Part shown: positions 1 to 4,253 of the stretch, one piece after another
Layout of the letters: each line of letters begins with the position of its first letter
Position numbering within the stretch: the stretch's first letter is position 1
Virus record (IMG/VR): IMGVR_UViG_2713896778_000030
Origin: a virus
Lineage: Duplodnaviria > Heunggongvirae > Uroviricota > Caudoviricetes
Direction: 5' to 3' (one strand)
Length of the DNA: 4,253 bases
Position numbers and translations under genes: made by a program
The notes under the pieces: model-generated
Seen by the model: only the letters and a program-made list of their open reading frames with translations
The model's database searches: none
Told to the model about the DNA's origin: nothing

Positions 1-64
1 GAGACTTTCTGAAGTAAAGGCGCATACCGCTTAGTTACCGCTCTGATAACTCTTACCTGTCCTG

Positions 65-97
65 CAATGGCGCTGATGTCAATATAAAGCGCCATTG
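65..97. other. Perfect 10-bp inverted repeat (stem-loop); possible + strand terminator
   Basis: CAATGGCGCT (65-74) and AGCGCCATTG (88-97) are exact reverse complements with a 13-nt loop. A C/T-rich tract CTGCTTCTTTGCC follows on the + strand. All three + frames have stops within the first 35 nt, so an upstream + strand gene could end just before it. Confidence 0.35.
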
Positions 98-335
98 CTG
101 CTTCTTTGCCGATCCCGGGATGCCTTCCATTCTGATGTTTGACTTCGCCCACTGAGAAACCCTCTGTTTCCCCTTAACGCCGGGGTAGCGGAACAAAAAC
201 CTGCTGCATAGTTATTAAAGTTGAACCCTGCCGTCATGTTCATACGCCTCGGGCTGGCTACTTAACCCCTGACCACTGCCGGGTAACTCGAAGTATTTCC
301 CTGCGTTCTGTGGGGCGGGGTGGGTTGGTATTTTT

Positions 336-363
336 AGTTTAATAAACATTAAACTTAAGTCAA
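336..363 (-). promoter_or_regulatory. Leftward PL-like promoter (-35 TTGACT, 16-nt spacer, -10 TAAACT on the minus strand)
   Basis: The reverse complement of 358-363 (agtcaa) is TTGACT and of 336-341 (agttta) is TAAACT. These are the same two hexamers as the rightward promoter at 1351-1380. An operator-like palindrome covers the spacer and -10. Confidence 0.4.
337..354. promoter_or_regulatory. Operator candidate OL: 18-bp palindrome GTTTAAT-AAAC-ATTAAAC
   Basis: The 7-bp arms GTTTAAT and ATTAAAC are exact reverse complements around a 4-bp spacer AAAC. It has the same architecture and spacer as the site at 1362-1379. Confidence 0.5.
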
Positions 364-376
364 GTAAAAACTAAAC
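359..376. promoter_or_regulatory. Degenerate second operator-like site ending in ACTAAAC
   Basis: gtcaagt-aaaa-ACTAAAC: the right arm is the conserved heptamer and the left arm matches the consensus at about 5 of 7 positions. The following CTAAACCG-N-GG (371-381) recurs at 1393-1403. Confidence 0.3.
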
Positions 377-386
377 CGCGGGACAT

Positions 387-419
387 AACAAACACAACGC
401 TTTTGATAAAGTCGTTGCG
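387..419 (-). terminator. Weak candidate intrinsic terminator downstream of the toxin gene
   Basis: On the minus strand, cgcaacg (rc of 413-419) pairs with cgttgtg (rc of 393-399), giving 7 bp including one G-U, with a 13-nt loop, followed by TTTGTT (rc of 387-392). The stem is short and the U tract is interrupted. Confidence 0.25.
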
Positions 420-447
420 GTTGTTATGTTTCTATTGGTAGTGAAAG

Positions 448-726
448 TTAGGGAAACTGGCGTCTTGCGTGGATCACGTTTACTACTTCAACGCTTGATG
501 TTGTTACGCGGTATAGAATTATATAGTTAGGGTGGGCTACAATCTCACGCAAGCCAGGTACTCTGTCGCTTGGTGGGTATAAATACGGATGTTCGGATAA
601 CGGCAGCACACAACCCCTTAATCGCTGCCATAAGCGTTCAGCCGCATCTATGTCGAAACGAGCAATATAACTAGTTATATCATCTAGGTCGGTATCTGCG
701 CTTTCAAGCCATAACACGGGTAACAT
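448..726 (-). CDS. parE2: ParE-family type II toxin (RelE/ParE fold), 92 aa
   Basis: Minus-strand ORF with ATG at 726-724 and TAA at 450-448. Protein begins MLPVLWLESADTDLDDITSYIARFD and ends VVNVIHARRQFP; length and N-terminal pattern fit ParE toxins. The start is 1 nt after the antitoxin stop (TAA-a-ATG), with a GGAG Shine-Dalgarno (rc of 739-742) inside the antitoxin 3' end. The symbol is recalled from the three-component paaR-paaA-parE systems of E. coli O157:H7; paralog 1 versus 2 cannot be resolved from memory. Confidence 0.75.
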   Translation of the reverse strand: MLPVLWLESADTDLDDITSYIARFDIDAAERLWQRLRGCVLPLSEHPYLYPPSDRVPGLREIVAHPNYIILYRVTTSSVEVVNVIHARRQFP

Positions 727-727
727 T

Positions 728-919
728 TTACTGCTTGCTCCGTTCCTTGCGCATCTTAGCAAAGCGTTCTGCCATTCTGCGCTCAACTTCGTCATGGGGA
801 ATTGCTGGGCGCGGATCTGCAAGGCTCGTTGCTACTTTCGCACGCAGCCATTCGTTGTAACTGTTTTCTTGTTCAATGGTTTCAAATTCAGAAACCATTG
901 GTGAAAGGGCTCTATTCAT
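728..919 (-). CDS. paaA2: Small antitoxin partner of ParE (PaaA-like), 63 aa
   Basis: Minus-strand ORF with ATG 919-917 preceded by GGAGGA (rc of 923-928) and TAA at 730-728. Protein MNRALSPMVSEFETIEQENSYNEWLRAKVA...KMRKERSKQ is highly charged, as expected for a small disordered antitoxin. It sits immediately upstream of and coupled to the ParE gene. The 63-aa length matches my recollection of PaaA2. Confidence 0.65.
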   Translation of the reverse strand: MNRALSPMVSEFETIEQENSYNEWLRAKVATSLADPRPAIPHDEVERRMAERFAKMRKERSKQ

Positions 920-939
920 GTTTCCTCCGGTTTTATAAC

Positions 940-1311
940 TCAGGCGCGGCGGCATTTTTGCGCCGCAATCCATCTCGCTATGAGATCTTCCATTGATTCT
1001 TTTTTCTGCTTTAACTCGCTGATTATCTGGCGTTGCTCATCCTCAGGGAAGGCTGAAAAAATCTGCAATAATTCCAGTTGATTAGACGTTAACCCTGCAT
1101 GTGGTGGAGAAACCCCCGGTTGTTCTGCGTATTCCGCATCCAGATACCCTTCCGGCATCCCGTATGTTTGCTCTATTCTTCTGGCAGCCTTTTCTCCAAA
1201 CGAGGCTCTCCCACTCATTAGTTGAGATAGGTAGCTCTTCTCTTTGGGTGGCAGAGTTTTATCTTTAAACCACTCCTTGAGACGTAAACGGCGAATTTCT
1301 TTTTTTTGCAT
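940..1311 (-). CDS. paaR2: HTH transcriptional regulator (PaaR-like); putative CI-type prophage repressor, 123 aa
   Basis: Minus-strand ORF with ATG 1311-1309 and TGA 942-940. Protein starts MQKKEIRRLRLKEWFKDK and carries an HTH with recognition-helix-like segment KSYLSQLMSGRASFGEKAARRIEQ. It is first in the operon with the antitoxin and toxin and divergent from a cro-like gene. There is no Shine-Dalgarno; a -10-like hexamer sits 6 nt upstream of the ATG. The upstream in-frame ATG at 1374 would lie inside the divergent promoter region. Confidence 0.65.
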   Translation of the reverse strand: MQKKEIRRLRLKEWFKDKTLPPKEKSYLSQLMSGRASFGEKAARRIEQTYGMPEGYLDAEYAEQPGVSPPHAGLTSNQLELLQIFSAFPEDEQRQIISELKQKKESMEDLIARWIAAQKCRRA

Positions 1312-1317
1312 GTGGTA

Positions 1318-1346
1318 ATTATCTTTAGTAATCACTAAACAAGCAA
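1318..1346 (-). promoter_or_regulatory. Leftward PRM-like promoter for the repressor operon
   Basis: On the minus strand, -35 TTGCTT (rc of 1341-1346), a 17-nt spacer, and -10 GATAAT (rc of 1318-1323). The spacer is exactly the 18-bp operator-like site at 1323-1340. The predicted transcription start falls at or next to the A of the ATG at 1311. Confidence 0.4.
1323..1340. promoter_or_regulatory. Operator candidate (OR, PRM-proximal): cTTTAGT-aatc-ACTAAAC
   Basis: TTTAGT (1324-1329) and ACTAAA (1334-1339) are exact reverse complements around a 4-bp spacer. It shares the heptamer ACTAAAC with the sites at 1373-1379, 1392-1398 and 370-376. Confidence 0.5.
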
Positions 1347-1350
1347 ATAC

Positions 1351-1380
1351 TTGACTCAATGGTTTATTAAACACTAAACT
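1351..1380 (+). promoter_or_regulatory. Rightward PR-like promoter for the cro-like operon
   Basis: -35 TTGACT (1351-1356), an 18-nt spacer, and -10 TAAACT (1375-1380). The hexamers are the same as in the leftward promoter at 336-363. The -10 lies inside the operator-like site at 1362-1379. Confidence 0.45.
1362..1379. promoter_or_regulatory. Operator candidate (OR, PR-proximal): GTTTAtT-aaac-ACTAAAC
   Basis: 7-bp arms with one mismatch around spacer AAAC; same spacer and arm consensus as the site at 337-354. Confidence 0.5.
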
Positions 1381-1387
1381 CGCAAAA

Positions 1388-1398
1388 AAACACTAAAC
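1388..1398. promoter_or_regulatory. Operator half-site aaac-ACTAAAC
   Basis: Third copy of ACTAAAC preceded by the AAAC spacer motif, with no matching left arm. It lies between the PR -10 and the cro-like Shine-Dalgarno. Confidence 0.3.
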
Positions 1399-1408
1399 CG
1401 AGGAAGGT

Positions 1409-1711
1409 ATGACATTAAAAGAGTTTATTAAATCATTAAGGGTTGGTGATGCTAAGAAATTCGCGGCCAGACTTGGTGTATCGCCATCTTACTTATCGCA
1501 AATGGCGTCTGGACGAACAGCTATATCTCCAACCCGCGCCCTTATGATCGAATCTGCGACGGAAGGCCAAGTAAGTAGGGCGGAGCTACGACCTCATGAT
1601 TGGGAGCTTATTTGGCCTGAGTATGCGAGCGGCATTCGTTTGGGGCAAACACATGTAGTTCATGCTGAAGGTGATTGTAGTGCATGCTTATCTGATGGAG
1701 TTGATTCATGA
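1409..1711 (+). CDS. Cro/YdaS-like HTH DNA-binding protein, 100 aa
   Basis: ATG 1409 preceded by AGGAAGG (1401-1407). HTH segment AKKFAARLGVSPSYLSQMASGRTAISPTRALMIESAT resembles the YdaS/Cro family. It is divergent from the repressor gene. The stop TGA 1709-1711 overlaps the next ATG (ATGA). Confidence 0.65.
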   Translation: MTLKEFIKSLRVGDAKKFAARLGVSPSYLSQMASGRTAISPTRALMIESATEGQVSRAELRPHDWELIWPEYASGIRLGQTHVVHAEGDCSACLSDGVDS

Positions 1712-2198
1712 AAATCAAGCATGAACACATCCGCATGGCGATGAATGTCTGGGCGCATCCGGACGGCGAAAAAGTACCGGCTGCGAAAATTACCAAAGCG
1801 TATTTCGAGCNNNNNNNNNNNNNNNNNNNNNNNNNNNNNNNNNNNNNNNNNNNNNNNNNNAAGCGTATTTCGAGCTGGGAATGACGTTCCCGGAACTGTA
1901 TGACGACAGCCATCCGGAAGCCCTGGCCCGTAATACCCAGAAAATTTTCCGTTGGCTGGATAAAGACACCCCTGATGCTGTTGAAAAAATGCAGGCTCTG
2001 TTACCGGCGATCGAAAAGGCGATGCCGCCTTTGCTGGTGGCCCGTATGCGCAGCCACAGTTCTGAATATTACCGTGAGATCGTCGAACGGAGGGAGCGGC
2101 TGGTGAAGGATGTCGATGATTTTGTTGCGTCAGCGGTTGTTTTGTATGACCAGATGAATCGCGGCGGCCCGGCAGGGAATGCTGTGGTGATGCACTAA
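1708..2198 (+). CDS. YdaT-family (CII-like) regulatory protein, interrupted by an N run; about 141 aa once the gap artefact is removed
   Basis: ATG 1708; the N-terminus MKIKHEHIRMAMNVWAHPDGEKVPAAKITKAYFE reads up to the N run. After the N run the sequence (K)AYFELGMTFPELYDDSHPEALARNTQKIFRWLDKD...VVMH continues to TAA 2196-2198 in a frame offset by 2. A 15-mer is duplicated on both sides of the gap. Family assignment is recalled similarity to Rac-prophage YdaT and gene order after the cro-like gene. Confidence 0.6.
1811..1860. other. Assembly or scaffold gap (50 N) with duplicated flanks
   Basis: The 15-mer aagcgtatttcgagc occurs at 1796-1810 and again at 1861-1875. The two flanking reading frames differ by 2, which equals 65 mod 3 (50 N plus one copy of the 15-mer). 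Confidence 0.8.
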
Positions 2199-2220
2199 AA
2201 GCACGGTGTTCGGGGGTTTT

Positions 2221-3183
2221 ATGAGCAGCAAGCTTCATGGTCTTGTCTGGGAAGGGTGCGCCTTCACCGGCATGATCTTATCCAGGGTGGCGGTTATGGC
2301 CCGTCTTGCAGACTACAGCAATGACGAGGGCGTGTCATGGCCTGCCATTGAAACTATCCGGCGTCAGATCGGTGCAAGAAGTGAATCCACAGTGAAATCG
2401 GCTATTGCAGAACTGGCGAAAGAGGGCTGGCTGACGAAGGAAGAGCGTAAGGTCGGTGGGCGTAATGTAAGCAATATCTATCGGCTTAATGTGGAAAAAC
2501 TCGAAGCAGCTGCGGCGGCGGCGCGTGAGTCATATAAACCGAAAAGAAAAATTAGCCCGGCAAAAAATGACCCGTTAACAGTTGACCCGTCAAATATTGA
2601 CCCCTCAACGGTTGACCCGTCAAATTTTGATGGATCAACTGTTGATAAAAAACTGCCGATTAGGGGGGCGATGATTGACCCCGATCCGTCAGTATTAAAA
2701 CCTGATCCGTCAGATAAAAGATCTTCTTGTCCGGACGCTTCGCAACCGGACCCGCAGACGGCTGAACAGGATTTTTTAACCCGACACCCTGACGCGGTTG
2801 TGTTCAGTGCGAAAAAACGCCAGTGGGGAAGTCAGGAAGATTTGGTGTGCGCACAGTGGATCTGGGGACGAATCGTGAGTCTTTACGAGCAGGCGGCCAG
2901 CGATGATGGCGAGATCACTAGACCGAAAGAACCCAACTGGACAGCATGGGCCAATGACGTTCGCACAATGCGGATGCTGGATGGCAGAACTCACAGACAA
3001 ATTTGTGAAATGTTTGGGCGTCTCCAGCGGGATTCGTTCTGGGTAAAAAACATCATGAGTCCGGCAAAACTCCGGGAAAAATGGGATGAACTGGTTATCC
3101 GCCTGGGGCGTTCGCCTGCGCAGCGTTGCGTGAATCACATTTCTGAACCGGACACTGAAATACCGCCGGGCTTCAGGGGGTAA
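2221..3183 (+). CDS. Phage replication initiator (O-like), 320 aa
   Basis: ORF 2206-3183 in the supplied track opens at GTG; the preferred start is ATG 2221, 4 nt after GGGGG. The N-terminal region (LSRVAVMARLADYSNDEGVSWPAIETIRRQIGARSESTVKSAIAELAKEGWL) looks like the winged-helix N-domain of phage replication initiators. A central linker has tandem peptide repeats DPLTVDPSNIDPSTVDPSNFDGSTVD encoded by iteron-like DNA repeats. The C-terminal domain is not recognised specifically. Confidence 0.65.
   Translation: MSSKLHGLVWEGCAFTGMILSRVAVMARLADYSNDEGVSWPAIETIRRQIGARSESTVKSAIAELAKEGWLTKEERKVGGRNVSNIYRLNVEKLEAAAAAARESYKPKRKISPAKNDPLTVDPSNIDPSTVDPSNFDGSTVDKKLPIRGAMIDPDPSVLKPDPSDKRSSCPDASQPDPQTAEQDFLTRHPDAVVFSAKKRQWGSQEDLVCAQWIWGRIVSLYEQAASDDGEITRPKEPNWTAWANDVRTMRMLDGRTHRQICEMFGRLQRDSFWVKNIMSPAKLREKWDELVIRLGRSPAQRCVNHISEPDTEIPPGFRG
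2566..2655. repeat. Candidate replication origin: tandem 15-bp iteron-like repeats inside the initiator gene
   Basis: Head-to-tail 15-bp units: aatgacccgttaaca (2566-2580), gttgacccgtcaaat (2581-2595), attgacccctcaacg (2596-2610), gttgacccgtcaaat (2611-2625, identical to unit 2), tttgatggatcaact (2626-2640), then an A-rich unit gttgataaaaaactg (2641-2655). The core TTGAC-CC-GTCAA has inverted-repeat arms. Related copies (tgaccccgatccgtcag, cctgatccgtcag) lie at 2676-2713. Confidence 0.55.
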
Positions 3184-3224
3184 GTGTTAATTTCTGGTCA
3201 TGAGGTAATTTTCAGGAGGGCTTG

Positions 3225-3274
3225 NNNNNNNNNNNNNNNNNNNNNNNNNNNNNNNNNNNNNNNNNNNNNNNNNN
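3225..3274. other. Gap (50 N) removing the 5' end of the following gene
   Basis: AGGAGG (3214-3219) lies 5 nt before the N run, and an open reading frame resumes at the first base after it (3275). No duplicated flank is visible here. Confidence 0.7.
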
Positions 3275-3553
3275 GAGCTGGTTGCCAGTGGCGATGTATA
3301 CAACTCTGGTTACGGGTTATTCCCGTCTGAACAGGCTCGTAAGGACTGGCAAAATGCCCGCAAAAAACTATCTAGGGCAAAGGTGAAGAAACCATCTGTG
3401 GTTGATCCGGATCTTATCTGGTCATTACCAGACGGAGAAATACGCCGCTACGACAGGCGTCTGAACATAATCTGTAGCGAGTGCCGGAAGAGCGAAGCTA
3501 TGCAGCGTGTACTGGCTTTCTATCAGGGTAATTTTCAGAAGGTGCTGTTGTGA
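3275..3553 (+). CDS. Ren-like protein, 3' fragment (start codon inside the N run)
   Basis: Open frame from 3275 to TGA 3551-3553 encoding ELVASGDVYNSGYGLFPSEQARKDWQNARKKLSRAKVKKPSVVDPDLIWSLPDGEIRRYDRRLNIICSECRKSEAMQRVLAFYQGNFQKVLL. The C-terminal motif N-L-[VI]-x-[KS]-E-C-R-x-S-x-A-M-x-R-V-L-A-x-Y matches my recollection of the lambda Ren C-terminus (NLVFKECRQSAAMKRVLAVY). It sits directly downstream of the replication gene, as ren does in lambda. This rests on memory, not a search. Confidence 0.45.
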   Translation, partial: ELVASGDVYNSGYGLFPSEQARKDWQNARKKLSRAKVKKPSVVDPDLIWSLPDGEIRRYDRRLNIICSECRKSEAMQRVLAFYQGNFQKVLL

Positions 3554-3658
3554 GCCAAATTAACAATCGGAACTTCGTGAAGAGAAAGCATAATCCAAAT
3601 CTGAATAATTAAGTTCAGCACTGTAAATAAAATTTAATCCTTAACTGGAGGTATATTT

Positions 3659-3871
3659 ATGTTAAATACACAGAAAGCCATTAATGCGGAAAAATATAAC
3701 GAGTGGGCAAGAAAATTCTCTGAGCAGATTTTTAAAATTACTGGCGATGAGAATGCGGCAAAAAATGAATTAGAACCGTGGACGCCTGAAGGAGCCGACC
3801 CAAATTATTGCTGGAGGGAGGTTGATCCAGTTGATGCTGCAAATGAAGCTATGAGTTATCACAACGATTAA
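3659..3871 (+). CDS. Small acidic hypothetical protein, 70 aa
   Basis: ATG 3659 preceded by TGGAGG (3646-3651) with a 7-nt spacer; TAA 3869-3871. Protein MLNTQKAINAEKYNEWARKFSEQIFKITGDENAAKNELEPWTPEGADPNYCWREVDPVDAANEAMSYHND has 14 D/E against 7 K/R, with an acidic C-terminal half. The gene is visibly more AT-rich than the replication genes. No family recognised. Confidence 0.5.
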   Translation: MLNTQKAINAEKYNEWARKFSEQIFKITGDENAAKNELEPWTPEGADPNYCWREVDPVDAANEAMSYHND

Positions 3872-3881
3872 TGTCAGGAGG

Positions 3882-3897
3882 CCGCCCGAAAGGGCGG
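3882..3897. other. GC stem-loop CCGCCC-GAAA-GGGCGG
   Basis: Perfect 6-bp G/C stem with a GAAA tetraloop, 11 nt after the stop of the 70-aa gene. There is no U tract on either strand, so it is not a canonical intrinsic terminator; it may be an RNA stability or processing hairpin. Confidence 0.45.
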
Positions 3898-3983
3898 TAA
3901 TGAATGGTCACATTATTTAGAAAAAATATCCGCGAAAGAGTAGAACAACAGAATTTCTGTTTCTCATTCTGTTTATCGTGTTG

Positions 3984-4121
3984 ATGATACCGATATCCCC
4001 GTTAATCCTAGTCTGGATAATCGGAAAAATAATTGAGCCAGTTATTGAATTGTATAACGACGTGGTATGGGCGTCATTCAACACACTGCACAATAAAATT
4101 AATCCGTATAAGGAAAACTGA
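3984..4121 (+). CDS. Small hydrophobic protein, 45 aa as written; probably the distal part of a ~73-aa membrane protein broken at an A6 tract
   Basis: ATG 3984 to TGA 4119-4121 encodes MIPISPLILVWIIGKIIEPVIELYNDVVWASFNTLHNKINPYKEN. The frame is open upstream to 3921 (KKYPRKSRTTEFLFLILFIVL...) without a start codon. An ATG at 3904 in the +1 frame reads MVTLFRK into the A run 3921-3926. The stop overlaps the next gene start (TGA-t-ATG). No Shine-Dalgarno precedes 3984. Confidence 0.3.
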   Translation: MIPISPLILVWIIGKIIEPVIELYNDVVWASFNTLHNKINPYKEN

Positions 4122-4122
4122 T

Positions 4123-4253
4123 ATGGCAACTTTGACAAAAAAAGAACGGGCATGGTTGAACGAATTACAGGAAGTTCTTGATCGCTGTCCATCACCGAAA
4201 AAAATTGGCTTTTACACCATTGGCGATAAAAGCATTTACCTGTATGACCTACG
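4123..4253 (+). CDS. Hypothetical protein, 5' fragment (continues beyond the window)
   Basis: ATG 4123 with AGGA (4111-4114) 8 nt upstream; open to the window end. Encodes MATLTKKERAWLNELQEVLDRCPSPKKIGFYTIGDKSIYLYDL, which has normal globular-protein composition. Not recognised. Confidence 0.4.
   Translation, partial: MATLTKKERAWLNELQEVLDRCPSPKKIGFYTIGDKSIYLYDL

Follow-up and report, generated by a model that had tools for sequence, protein, structure and literature searches.

The operators of a CP-933P/Sp12-type prophage immunity region and their counterparts across bacterial genera

The closest described relatives of the locus considered here are the immunity switch of phage lambda and the immunity regions of two E. 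coli prophages, the cryptic prophage CP-933P and Rac. In lambda, the right operator (OR) combines divergent, back-to-back promoters with tandem pseudo-palindromic operators, on which the repressor CI and the Cro protein act with opposite site preferences. CP-933P shares this arrangement, with operators of similar size and with a repressor and a Cro-like protein in the corresponding roles, and it also shares the leaderless repressor mRNA, the positive autoregulation of PRM, the distal OL/PL cluster, an octamer-forming repressor and a CII-like activator whose target, PRE, lies between the cro-like gene and the cII-like gene. Specifically, the centres of lambda OR3, OR2 and OR1 lie at about -20, -42 and -66 from the PRM start, which the CP-933P centres at -20.5, -40.5 and -59.5 resemble. 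The number and spacing of the sites differ, however, as lambda has three operators spaced 23-24 bp apart, whereas CP-933P has four at 19-20-bp intervals.

The proteins differ more than the layout. PaaR2, the CP-933P repressor, has no detectable sequence homology to lambda CI, matches no Pfam family and lacks the S24 peptidase domain, so that the CP-933P switch is not RecA/SOS-inducible; PaaR2 works like CI yet stands outside the CI/LexA family. The place of lambda rexAB is taken in CP-933P by a ParE toxin-antitoxin pair, and the CP-933P prophage, unlike lambda, is cryptic. Lambda CII, furthermore, is unrelated to its CP-933P counterpart YdaT, a POU-type tetramer (PMC9986795).

The CP-933P version has been studied directly. 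Jurenas et al. (2021, mBio 12:e02947-21; PMC8630535) worked on its 97-bp region from strain EDL933, and the operators, the promoters and the bistability of the switch are thereby already known, having been characterised experimentally on essentially the sequence analysed here. Purified PaaR2 and YdaS gave specific shifts with multiple complexes in EMSA, where a composition-matched 97-bp fragment served as the negative control, and DNase I footprints extended over both promoters, covering about 78 bp for PaaR2 and 27 + 32 bp for YdaS, which protects the PRM side first, at low concentration (PMC8630535). Footprints of this length do not resolve the individual 18-mers. In gfp fusions, PaaR2 and YdaS each repress both PRM and PR; repression by PaaR2 is stronger at PR, and at a low level of this protein PRM is activated about 4-fold. 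A two-colour single-cell reporter, carried on a plasmid and not at the chromosomal locus, revealed two heritable states, and bistability was gone in paaR2 or ydaS stop-codon mutants. PaaR2 was found to be an octamer in solution and to be without a peptidase motif, and mitomycin C gives no response (all PMC8630535).

The same paper describes four evenly spaced 18-bp inverted repeats, IR1-IR4, with the half-site GTTTAGTAA, the conserved left half being missing from IR2 and IR4. Beside these inverted repeats it defines 'pseudosymmetrical' operators OR1-OR3, and it leaves open whether direct or inverted repeats are recognised (PMC8630535). The text of the paper, as distinct from its figures, reports no reporter fusions with operator-site mutations, and a literature search found no paper with base-level PaaR2-DNA or YdaS-DNA contacts.

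The RacR/YdaS/YdaT region of the Rac prophage of E. coli K-12 has its gene order and its YdaS and YdaT protein families in common with CP-933P, whose YdaS and YdaT share only 26% and 31% identity with their Rac counterparts (PMC8630535). RacR, in contrast, is a different repressor with different operators from PaaR2. The YdaT boxes of the two prophages, ATGATT-N6-AATCAA in Rac and TTGATT-N6-AATCAA in CP-933P, are nearly identical and are cross-recognised between prophages; Rac YdaT binds between racR and ydaS as well, but its CP-933P counterpart reportedly does not bind between paaR2 and ydaS.

The analysis presented here places a further copy of this switch in its genomic and evolutionary context. 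With high confidence, positions 1312-1408 are the OR of a CP-933P/Sp12-type immunity switch, in which PaaR2 and YdaS act as competitors on a common set of operators, and these overlap the divergent promoters. The evidence comes from two sides: binding, footprint extent, transcript starts, repression and activation, and bistability are taken from the literature, while sequence identity, geometry, statistics and cross-genus conservation were established in the present work.

Identity and gene content of the window

The window, the whole stretch of 4,253 nucleotides that was analysed, is the immunity region of a lambdoid cryptic prophage of the CP-933P/Sp12 type from E. coli. Prophages in E. coli O121 genomes match the region at 100% identity, and O157:H7 matches it at 99.8%. 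Between positions 1 and 1810, the window differs from prophage Sp12 of O157:H7 Sakai at four bases only (200, 1112, 1357 and 1594), and Sp12 is in turn identical to CP-933P of EDL933 (PMC8630535). The 97-bp paaR2-ydaS intergenic region (1312-1408) matches Sakai at 96/97 positions, with IR1, IR3, IR4 and all four promoter hexamers unchanged. Its single difference is at 1357, where the window has C and Sakai has T; this base lies directly 3' of the PR -35, outside IR1, IR3 and IR4 and outside the hexamers. Downstream of the O-like gene, the genes differ from those of Sp12.

The published experiments can be mapped onto the window through their primers. The EDL933 genomic primers of PMC8630535 map with 0 mismatches in 28 of 29 cases, the exception marking the SNP at 1594. 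All amplification and cloning primers, for promoter, gene, EMSA and footprint fragments, are exact (21/21), and FL1, FL2, F-PRM, R-PRM, Footprint1 and Footprint2 show 0 mismatches. Within the species, 593 of 5,426 complete E. coli genomes carry the 97-bp region. The exact allele of the window, with C at 1357, is rare: it occurs in 9 of these 593 carriers, O121 strain RM8352 being named among the matches listed.

The genes of the switch are arranged as follows.

448-726, minus strand: parE2, Pfam ParE_toxin
728-919, minus strand: paaA2, Pfam PaaA2, forming an antitoxin-toxin pair with parE2
940-1311, minus strand: paaR2, a 123-aa CI-like repressor that has a DNA-binding domain at its N-terminus and lacks an S24 peptidase domain
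1409-1711, plus strand: ydaS, a 100-aa Cro-like HTH protein
1708-2198, plus strand: ydaT, a CII-like activator, interrupted at 1811-1860 by 50 N with a flanking 15-bp duplication
2221-3183, plus strand: an O-like replication gene, read rightward after ydaT

The 123-aa repressor and the 100-aa Cro-like protein named in the original prediction, which had been made from the letters alone, are thus paaR2 and ydaS, and both are as it described them. In Sakai, Sp12 is annotated with a 'phage repressor protein CI' (ECs_2279) and a 'phage antirepressor protein Cro' (ECs_2278). PaaR2 differs from the Sakai protein in one residue (V67 here, G67 in Sakai), and it agrees at every position of residues 1-66 with 7nkv, 8c3k and 8c3l, structures of the N-terminal domain that the PDB names 'Phage repressor protein CI'. 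A Pfam search with PaaR2 returned no family at E <= 0.01, and hence no Peptidase_S24; the protein does match phrog_5736, a transcriptional regulator family.

PDB 8c7k ('Phage antirepressor protein Cro') has the same sequence as YdaS (100% identity), and 8co2 is a second YdaS structure. By Pfam gathering thresholds, YdaS belongs to the Cro/YdaS HTH family, scoring 46.5 bits against YdaS_toxin (PF15943; cut-off 30) and 29.8 bits against HTH_3 (cut-off 23), with P22_Cro at 16.2 bits, below its cut-off of 30.2. YdaT differs in one residue from PDB 8bt1, has a further structure in 3c4r and matches phrog_163, a CII-like activator family. PaaA2, ParE2 and YdaS are identical in protein sequence to their Sakai counterparts, and paaA2-parE2 are co-transcribed with paaR2 from PRM.

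Operators interleaved with divergent promoters

Promoters and repeats share the intergenic region in the following way.

1318-1346, minus strand: PRM933P, with -35 TTGCTT (1346-1341), a 17-bp spacer (1340-1324) and -10 GATAAT (1323-1318), read directly from the sequence
1351-1380, plus strand: PR933P, with -35 TTGACT (1351-1356), an 18-bp spacer and -10 TAAACT (1375-1380), found by promoter scan; drives ydaS-ydaT
1323-1340, no strand assigned: IR1, 18-bp pseudo-palindrome CTTTAGTAATCACTAAAC in the PRM933P spacer, with its centre at about -20.5 relative to the start of paaR2 transcription
1343-1360, no strand assigned: IR2, a weak site overlapping the -35 elements of both promoters, with 2/9 matches in the left half and 6/9 in the right; coordinates reconstructed
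1362-1379, no strand assigned: IR3, 18-bp pseudo-palindrome GTTTATTAAACACTAAAC covering part of the PR933P spacer and 5/6 bases of its -10
1381-1398, no strand assigned: IR4, matching the consensus in its right half only, CACTAAAC, the third ACTAAAC; coordinates reconstructed

The coordinates of IR2 and IR4 are reconstructed from the text of PMC8630535, on the basis of the even spacing that it describes, and not from the paper's figures.

Both promoters agree with published transcript starts. The -35 of PRM933P matches the consensus at 3/6 positions, and it is because of this weak element that the promoter scan did not list PRM933P. Its hexamers are nevertheless correctly placed for the 5' RACE start, which falls on the first base of the paaR2 start codon, an A (window 1311), so that the mRNA is leaderless; leaderless translation is backed by N-terminal sequencing (MQKKE) and mass spectrometry (PMC8630535). 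The predictions for PR933P and PRM933P are both in accord with the 5' RACE start sites of that study. The two starts lie about 76 bp apart, and the promoters are divergent and back to back.

ACTAAAC had been predicted to occur three times in 97 bp, and it does, at 1334-1340, 1373-1379 and 1392-1398. Two of these copies had been read as right arms of 18-bp palindromes at 1323-1340 and 1362-1379, with 7-bp arms and a 4-bp spacer. This holds too, with the refinement that both palindromes are imperfect: arm pairing is 6/7 in each, and self-symmetry counted over 9-bp half-sites is 7/9 for the first and 6/9 for the second. As had likewise been proposed, the first palindrome fills the 17-bp spacer of the leftward promoter (1340-1324) and the second covers the rightward -10, to the extent of 5/6 bases of TAAACT. 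The two palindromes are the published IR1 and IR3, and the third ACTAAAC is the right half of IR4. In the published work, IR1 is placed over PRM933P, within the PaaR2 and YdaS footprints, and IR3 over PR933P (PMC8630535).

With sites spaced at 19-20 bp, IR1 and IR3 are good palindromes, while IR2 and IR4 are essentially half-sites. IR3 is centred at -59.5 from the PRM start and IR2 at about -40.5, and the C/T polymorphism at 1357 falls inside IR2. IR4 overlaps the expected start site of PR as well as the 5' UTR of ydaS, and it contains an 11-nt stretch, AAACACTAAAC at 1388-1398, that is an exact copy of 1369-1379. The left half of IR4 is variable within E. coli, both in sequence and in the length of its A-run, with A7 and A8 spacer alleles between IR3 and IR4. 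None of the intergenic positions that vary within E. coli falls in IR1, in IR3 or in the ACTAAAC half of IR4.

Inverted repeats between two genes could also function by forming hairpins in RNA or DNA (terminator, attenuator or 5' UTR structure) in place of serving as duplex operators, and IR1 can indeed be folded as a small hairpin in the minimum-free-energy structure. The fold is, however, unexceptional (z = -1.44, with 15/200 shuffles at least as stable), the stems are AT-rich with loops of 4 nt, and an Rfam search of the window returned no family. Furthermore, IR1 and most of IR3 precede the start sites of PRM and PR, respectively, so neither is contained in the main transcripts. The chance that the palindromes work as hairpins is accordingly close to negligible, and the duplex operator reading is the one pursued below.

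The distal cluster, the YdaT box and the proposed circuit

The operator motif is not confined to the intergenic region. The consensus GTTTANT-N4-ANTAAAC is matched with 0 mismatches at 1362-1379 and with 1 mismatch at 1323-1340, and it recurs at 337-354 (0 mismatches) and 359-376 (2 mismatches), two sites that were absent from the original prediction. A fourth ACTAAAC is likewise found far from the intergenic region, at 370-376. These distal sites, together with a box for YdaT, add the following features.

336-376, minus strand: PL933P/OL cluster, with operator-like 18-mers at 337-354 (GTTTAATAAACATTAAAC) and 359-376 (GTCAAGTAAAAACTAAAC), interleaved with the leftward PL promoter
336-363, minus strand: PL933P, with -35 TTGACT (363-358), a 16-bp spacer and -10 TAAACT (341-336), found by promoter scan
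1701-1718, no strand assigned: YdaT box (OM), TTGATTCATGAAAATCAA, spanning the ydaS stop and the ydaT start

The hexamers of PL933P are those of PR933P (TTGACT and TAAACT). The PL primers of the published study map to 330-351 and 427-447 of the window; in that study, PL933P/OL lies downstream of the toxin-antitoxin genes, and PaaR2 or YdaS lowered expression of a PL933P-gfp fusion about 100-fold (PMC8630535). OL1-OL3 are mentioned for CP-933P (PMC8630535); in the window, a search for third and fourth OL sites flanking 337-376 at 19-22-bp spacing returned no half-site match.

Recurrence of the motif at both promoters bears on a further reading, according to which the repeats simply reflect promoter elements and an AT-rich composition and do not serve as operators. 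The region is AT-rich, and the -10 TAAACT of PR (1375-1380) and that of PL (341-336) each overlap an arm of the motif. The ACTAAAC of IR1 lies in the PRM spacer, however, and that of IR4 downstream of the PR -10, so neither is a promoter hexamer. Composition does not account for the counts either: ACTAAAC occurs 4 times in the whole window against 0.47 expected, and the 18-bp consensus 4 times against 0.27 expected, and in both cases 0/200 dinucleotide-preserving shuffles reach the observed 4. This reading is also contradicted by the specific EMSA shifts and the DNase I protection, obtained with a composition-matched 97-bp negative control (PMC8630535). It is thus very improbable that the repeats are by-products, and their reading as operators is retained.

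The YdaT box matches the YdaT operator TTGATT-N6-AATCAA defined by DNase I footprint (PMC9986795), of which 0.02 copies would be expected by chance. It belongs to the YdaT-activated PRE933P, which provides a second route to paaR2 expression (PMC8630535). Of the features of a lambda-type switch, the window contains divergent genes with two promoters, at least three tandem operators and a distal OL/PL; competition of the two regulators with opposite order of occupancy is known from the published experiments.

In the model that the data support best, PRM933P, reading leftward, produces a leaderless paaR2-paaA2-parE2 mRNA, and PR933P, reading rightward, produces ydaS-ydaT. PaaR2 preferentially shuts PR, and PL as well, and at low levels it stimulates PRM. 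YdaS, in turn, fills the PRM side first and shuts PRM. Mutual repression between PaaR2 and YdaS gives rise to two heritable expression states. The second operator cluster with PL at 336-376, and the YdaT-activated PRE near 1701-1718, complete a lambda-like circuit. The bases contacted by each protein are inferred, as is any looping between OL and OR by octameric PaaR2.

The original prediction of a bistable switch of the OR/PR/PRM type is supported by the published experiments on DNA that is identical at 96/97 positions (PMC8630535). The EMSA, DNase footprinting and reporter fusions that it had proposed are part of that published record, in which PaaR2 and YdaS bind and repress. The full set of four sites, the OL/PL cluster at 336-376, the leaderless paaR2 mRNA, the YdaT-activated PRE and the missing RecA-cleavable domain of the repressor had no place in it.

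Counterparts of the operators in other genera

The comparison was extended to 27 loci that encode PaaR2 relatives (43-76% identity) in other genera, including Xenorhabdus, Photorhabdus, Yersinia, Erwinia, Enterobacter, Raoultella, Morganella, Arsenophonus and Massilia as well as the fungal endosymbionts Mycoavidus and Glomeribacter. By tblastn, a divergent YdaS homologue was detected in 22/27 loci and a YdaT homologue in 11/27, and homologues of paaA2/parE2 in 0/27.

A search for the motif in related prophage immunity regions, which had been suggested along with the original prediction, produced a clear signal. Upstream of the repressor genes, 27 x 140 bp contain 45 copies of the pattern [GA]TTTA-N7-[CT]TAA[AT]C, compared with 22 in the other 134.8 kb, an enrichment of about 73-fold. 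In 21 of the 27 loci, a pair of such sites lies 37-39 bp apart, representing the counterparts of IR1 and IR3. Between the two sites, the sequence GTCAAG-N2-TTTGCTT is nearly fixed in the relatives and corresponds to two -35 elements placed back to back; the PR -35 (GTCAAG, on the other strand) and -10 (AGTTTA) are conserved. The IR1 counterpart keeps the same position relative to this promoter core. IR1 begins 29 nt from the ATG in 16 of the related loci and in the window, which indicates that the leaderless geometry is conserved. Furthermore, an OL-like motif site is present 450-1040 bp past the repressor start in 17/27 relatives.

The remaining repeats behave differently from this pair. No counterpart of IR4, the third ACTAAAC, was found in the 27 relatives, and the match of IR2 to the consensus is not conserved beyond the promoter hexamers. 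In these comparisons, IR1 and IR3 are the evolutionarily conserved operator core, and the third repeat and the toxin-antitoxin genes were detected in the E. coli lineage only.

These comparisons also speak to the question of how the sites are recognised. The switch could be the same while PaaR2 oligomers bind head-to-tail to direct repeats as the recognition units, with the inverted symmetry being secondary. Several features of the window agree with this: CACTAAAC occurs three times on the same strand, IR4 has solely the CACTAAAC half, the stretches 1324-1347 and 1363-1386 form a 24-nt direct repeat of 83% identity, and AAACACTAAAC is exact at 1369-1379 and 1388-1398. In the published work, the 'pseudosymmetrical' OR1-OR3 and the octameric state of PaaR2 point in the same direction (PMC8630535). 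The third copy is, however, the one for which the 27 relatives have no counterpart, and across these loci both outer arms of each site are kept while the centre varies, IR3 retaining a nearly invariant GTTTA...TAAAC and IR1 following the consensus gTTTAg-N4-TACTAATC. The asymmetric centre of IR3, moreover, is inverted in the window as compared with most relatives, with the arms unchanged, which is more readily explained by a symmetric dimer site than by a directional repeat. HTH proteins, the class to which both PaaR2 and YdaS belong, typically bind as symmetric dimers, and this likewise counts against direct repeats. Head-to-tail recognition of direct repeats is thus considered unlikely, and competition of PaaR2 and YdaS for shared palindromic operators is kept as the preferred reading.

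A more far-reaching proposal can be put forward only tentatively, and the analysis leans against it as a whole. Under this proposal, the window would belong to an old and widespread type of immunity region, extending from Enterobacterales to Burkholderiales, in which two 18-bp GTTTA-N8-TAAAC palindromes 37-39 bp apart flank a double -35 core of constant sequence (GTCAAG-N2-TTTGCTT), in most cases at 29 nt from the start of a leaderless repressor gene. IR1 and IR3 would then be the sole ancestral operators, IR4 and the toxin-antitoxin pair would be additions of the E. coli lineage, and the rare C1357 could shift the bias of the switch.

What the present analysis adds to the experimentally characterised switch is the comparative picture across genera, together with the natural alleles 1357C and the A7/A8 spacer. 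The conserved IR1/IR3 core could guide base-level binding studies. The switch is of interest in two further respects: it is a lambda-style bistable circuit that is built from proteins unrelated to CI and CII, and a ParE toxin-antitoxin module of EHEC prophages is under its control.

The toxin-antitoxin pair and candidate terminators

Comparison of the window with 27 loci from other genera that encode PaaR2 relatives (L003-L029) bears on how the toxin-antitoxin genes came to lie within this immunity region. Specifically, paaA2 and parE2 are absent from all 27 related immunity regions, and in most of these about 450-700 bp separate the repressor start from the OL-like site, compared with about 960 bp in the window. 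Since none of the relatives carries the two genes and most have the OL-like site nearer the repressor start, the arrangement fits a history in which the toxin-antitoxin pair would have been inserted into the interval separating OL from the repressor gene, a hypothesis put forward in 2021 (Jurenas et al., PMC8630535).

The window furthermore contains two structures that can be considered as possible terminators:

383-429: inverted repeat whose 22-nt arms are 82% complementary and stand 3 nt apart
3874-3899: GC-rich hairpin, GGCCGCCC-GAAA-GGGCGG

The inverted repeat has the parE2 stop (448) on one side and the PL/OL cluster of operators and leftward promoter on the other, and may terminate transcription of the paaR2-paaA2-parE2 operon or serve as an insulator from PL. 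The terminator scan of the window did not call it, as it lacks a T-run. The hairpin lies directly past the stop of a 70-aa open reading frame (3659-3871) and overlaps the next ATG, and may represent either a terminator or a translational-coupling element.

Natural variation in the operator region

Among the 593 E. coli genomes carrying the region, just 9 share the exact 97-bp paaR2-ydaS intergenic allele of the window. At position 1357, directly 3' of the PR -35 element TTGACT and within the weak operator site IR2, the window has a C, while O157:H7 Sakai, O157:H7 TR01, phage Evi and others have a T. Within E. coli, natural variants are concentrated at 1381-1391, in the left, non-conserved half of operator site IR4; they include G/A at 1383, A/G at 1387 and a run of either 7 or 8 A residues, which sets the spacing between IR3 and IR4 at 19 or 20 bp. 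In the related locus of Xenorhabdus khoisanae (L014), the operator pair is displaced to -376/-339, and a tandem array of at least four copies of a roughly 21-bp unit, TACGGTAAATAGTGTTATGTG, occupies the stretch between that pair and the repressor start, from about 340 to 0 bp ahead of the gene.

Replication-gene repeats and runs of N

Within the O-like replication gene, positions 2547-2621 hold at least four repeats with a 15-bp period and a consensus of about TTGACCCGTCAAnnn, which code for the VDPSNIDPSTVDPSNF stretch of the protein. By analogy with lambda, these repeats look like origin iterons that lie inside the gene for the initiator.

Two stretches of the window consist of undefined bases:

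1811-1860: run of 50 N inside ydaT
3225-3274: run of 50 N at the start of the DUF977 gene

Compared with the O121 and Sakai genomes, the first run is an insertion, with a 15-bp duplication, AAGCGTATTTCGAGC, on either side of it (1796-1810 = 1861-1875), so that ydaT gives the impression of being interrupted; the second stands in place of 143 bp of the DUF977 gene start. Both runs have the look of artefacts of assembly or masking, not of biological features.

Mosaicism and spread of the immunity type

The O121 genome is 100% identical to the window over 1-3224 but only 96% identical to its right end, 3275-4253, and downstream of the O-like gene the O121 prophage differs in gene content from the O157:H7 prophages (TR01, Sakai Sp12), a difference that is typical lambdoid mosaicism. 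The 40-kb record of Escherichia phage Evi (L031; LR597642.1), which was deposited as a phage, includes the entire parE2-paaA2-paaR2/ydaS-ydaT module, 98.3% identical, but has a different replication gene, annotated 'Primosomal protein I'. With the complete module present in a phage record, the PaaR2/YdaS immunity type therefore extends beyond cryptic prophages.
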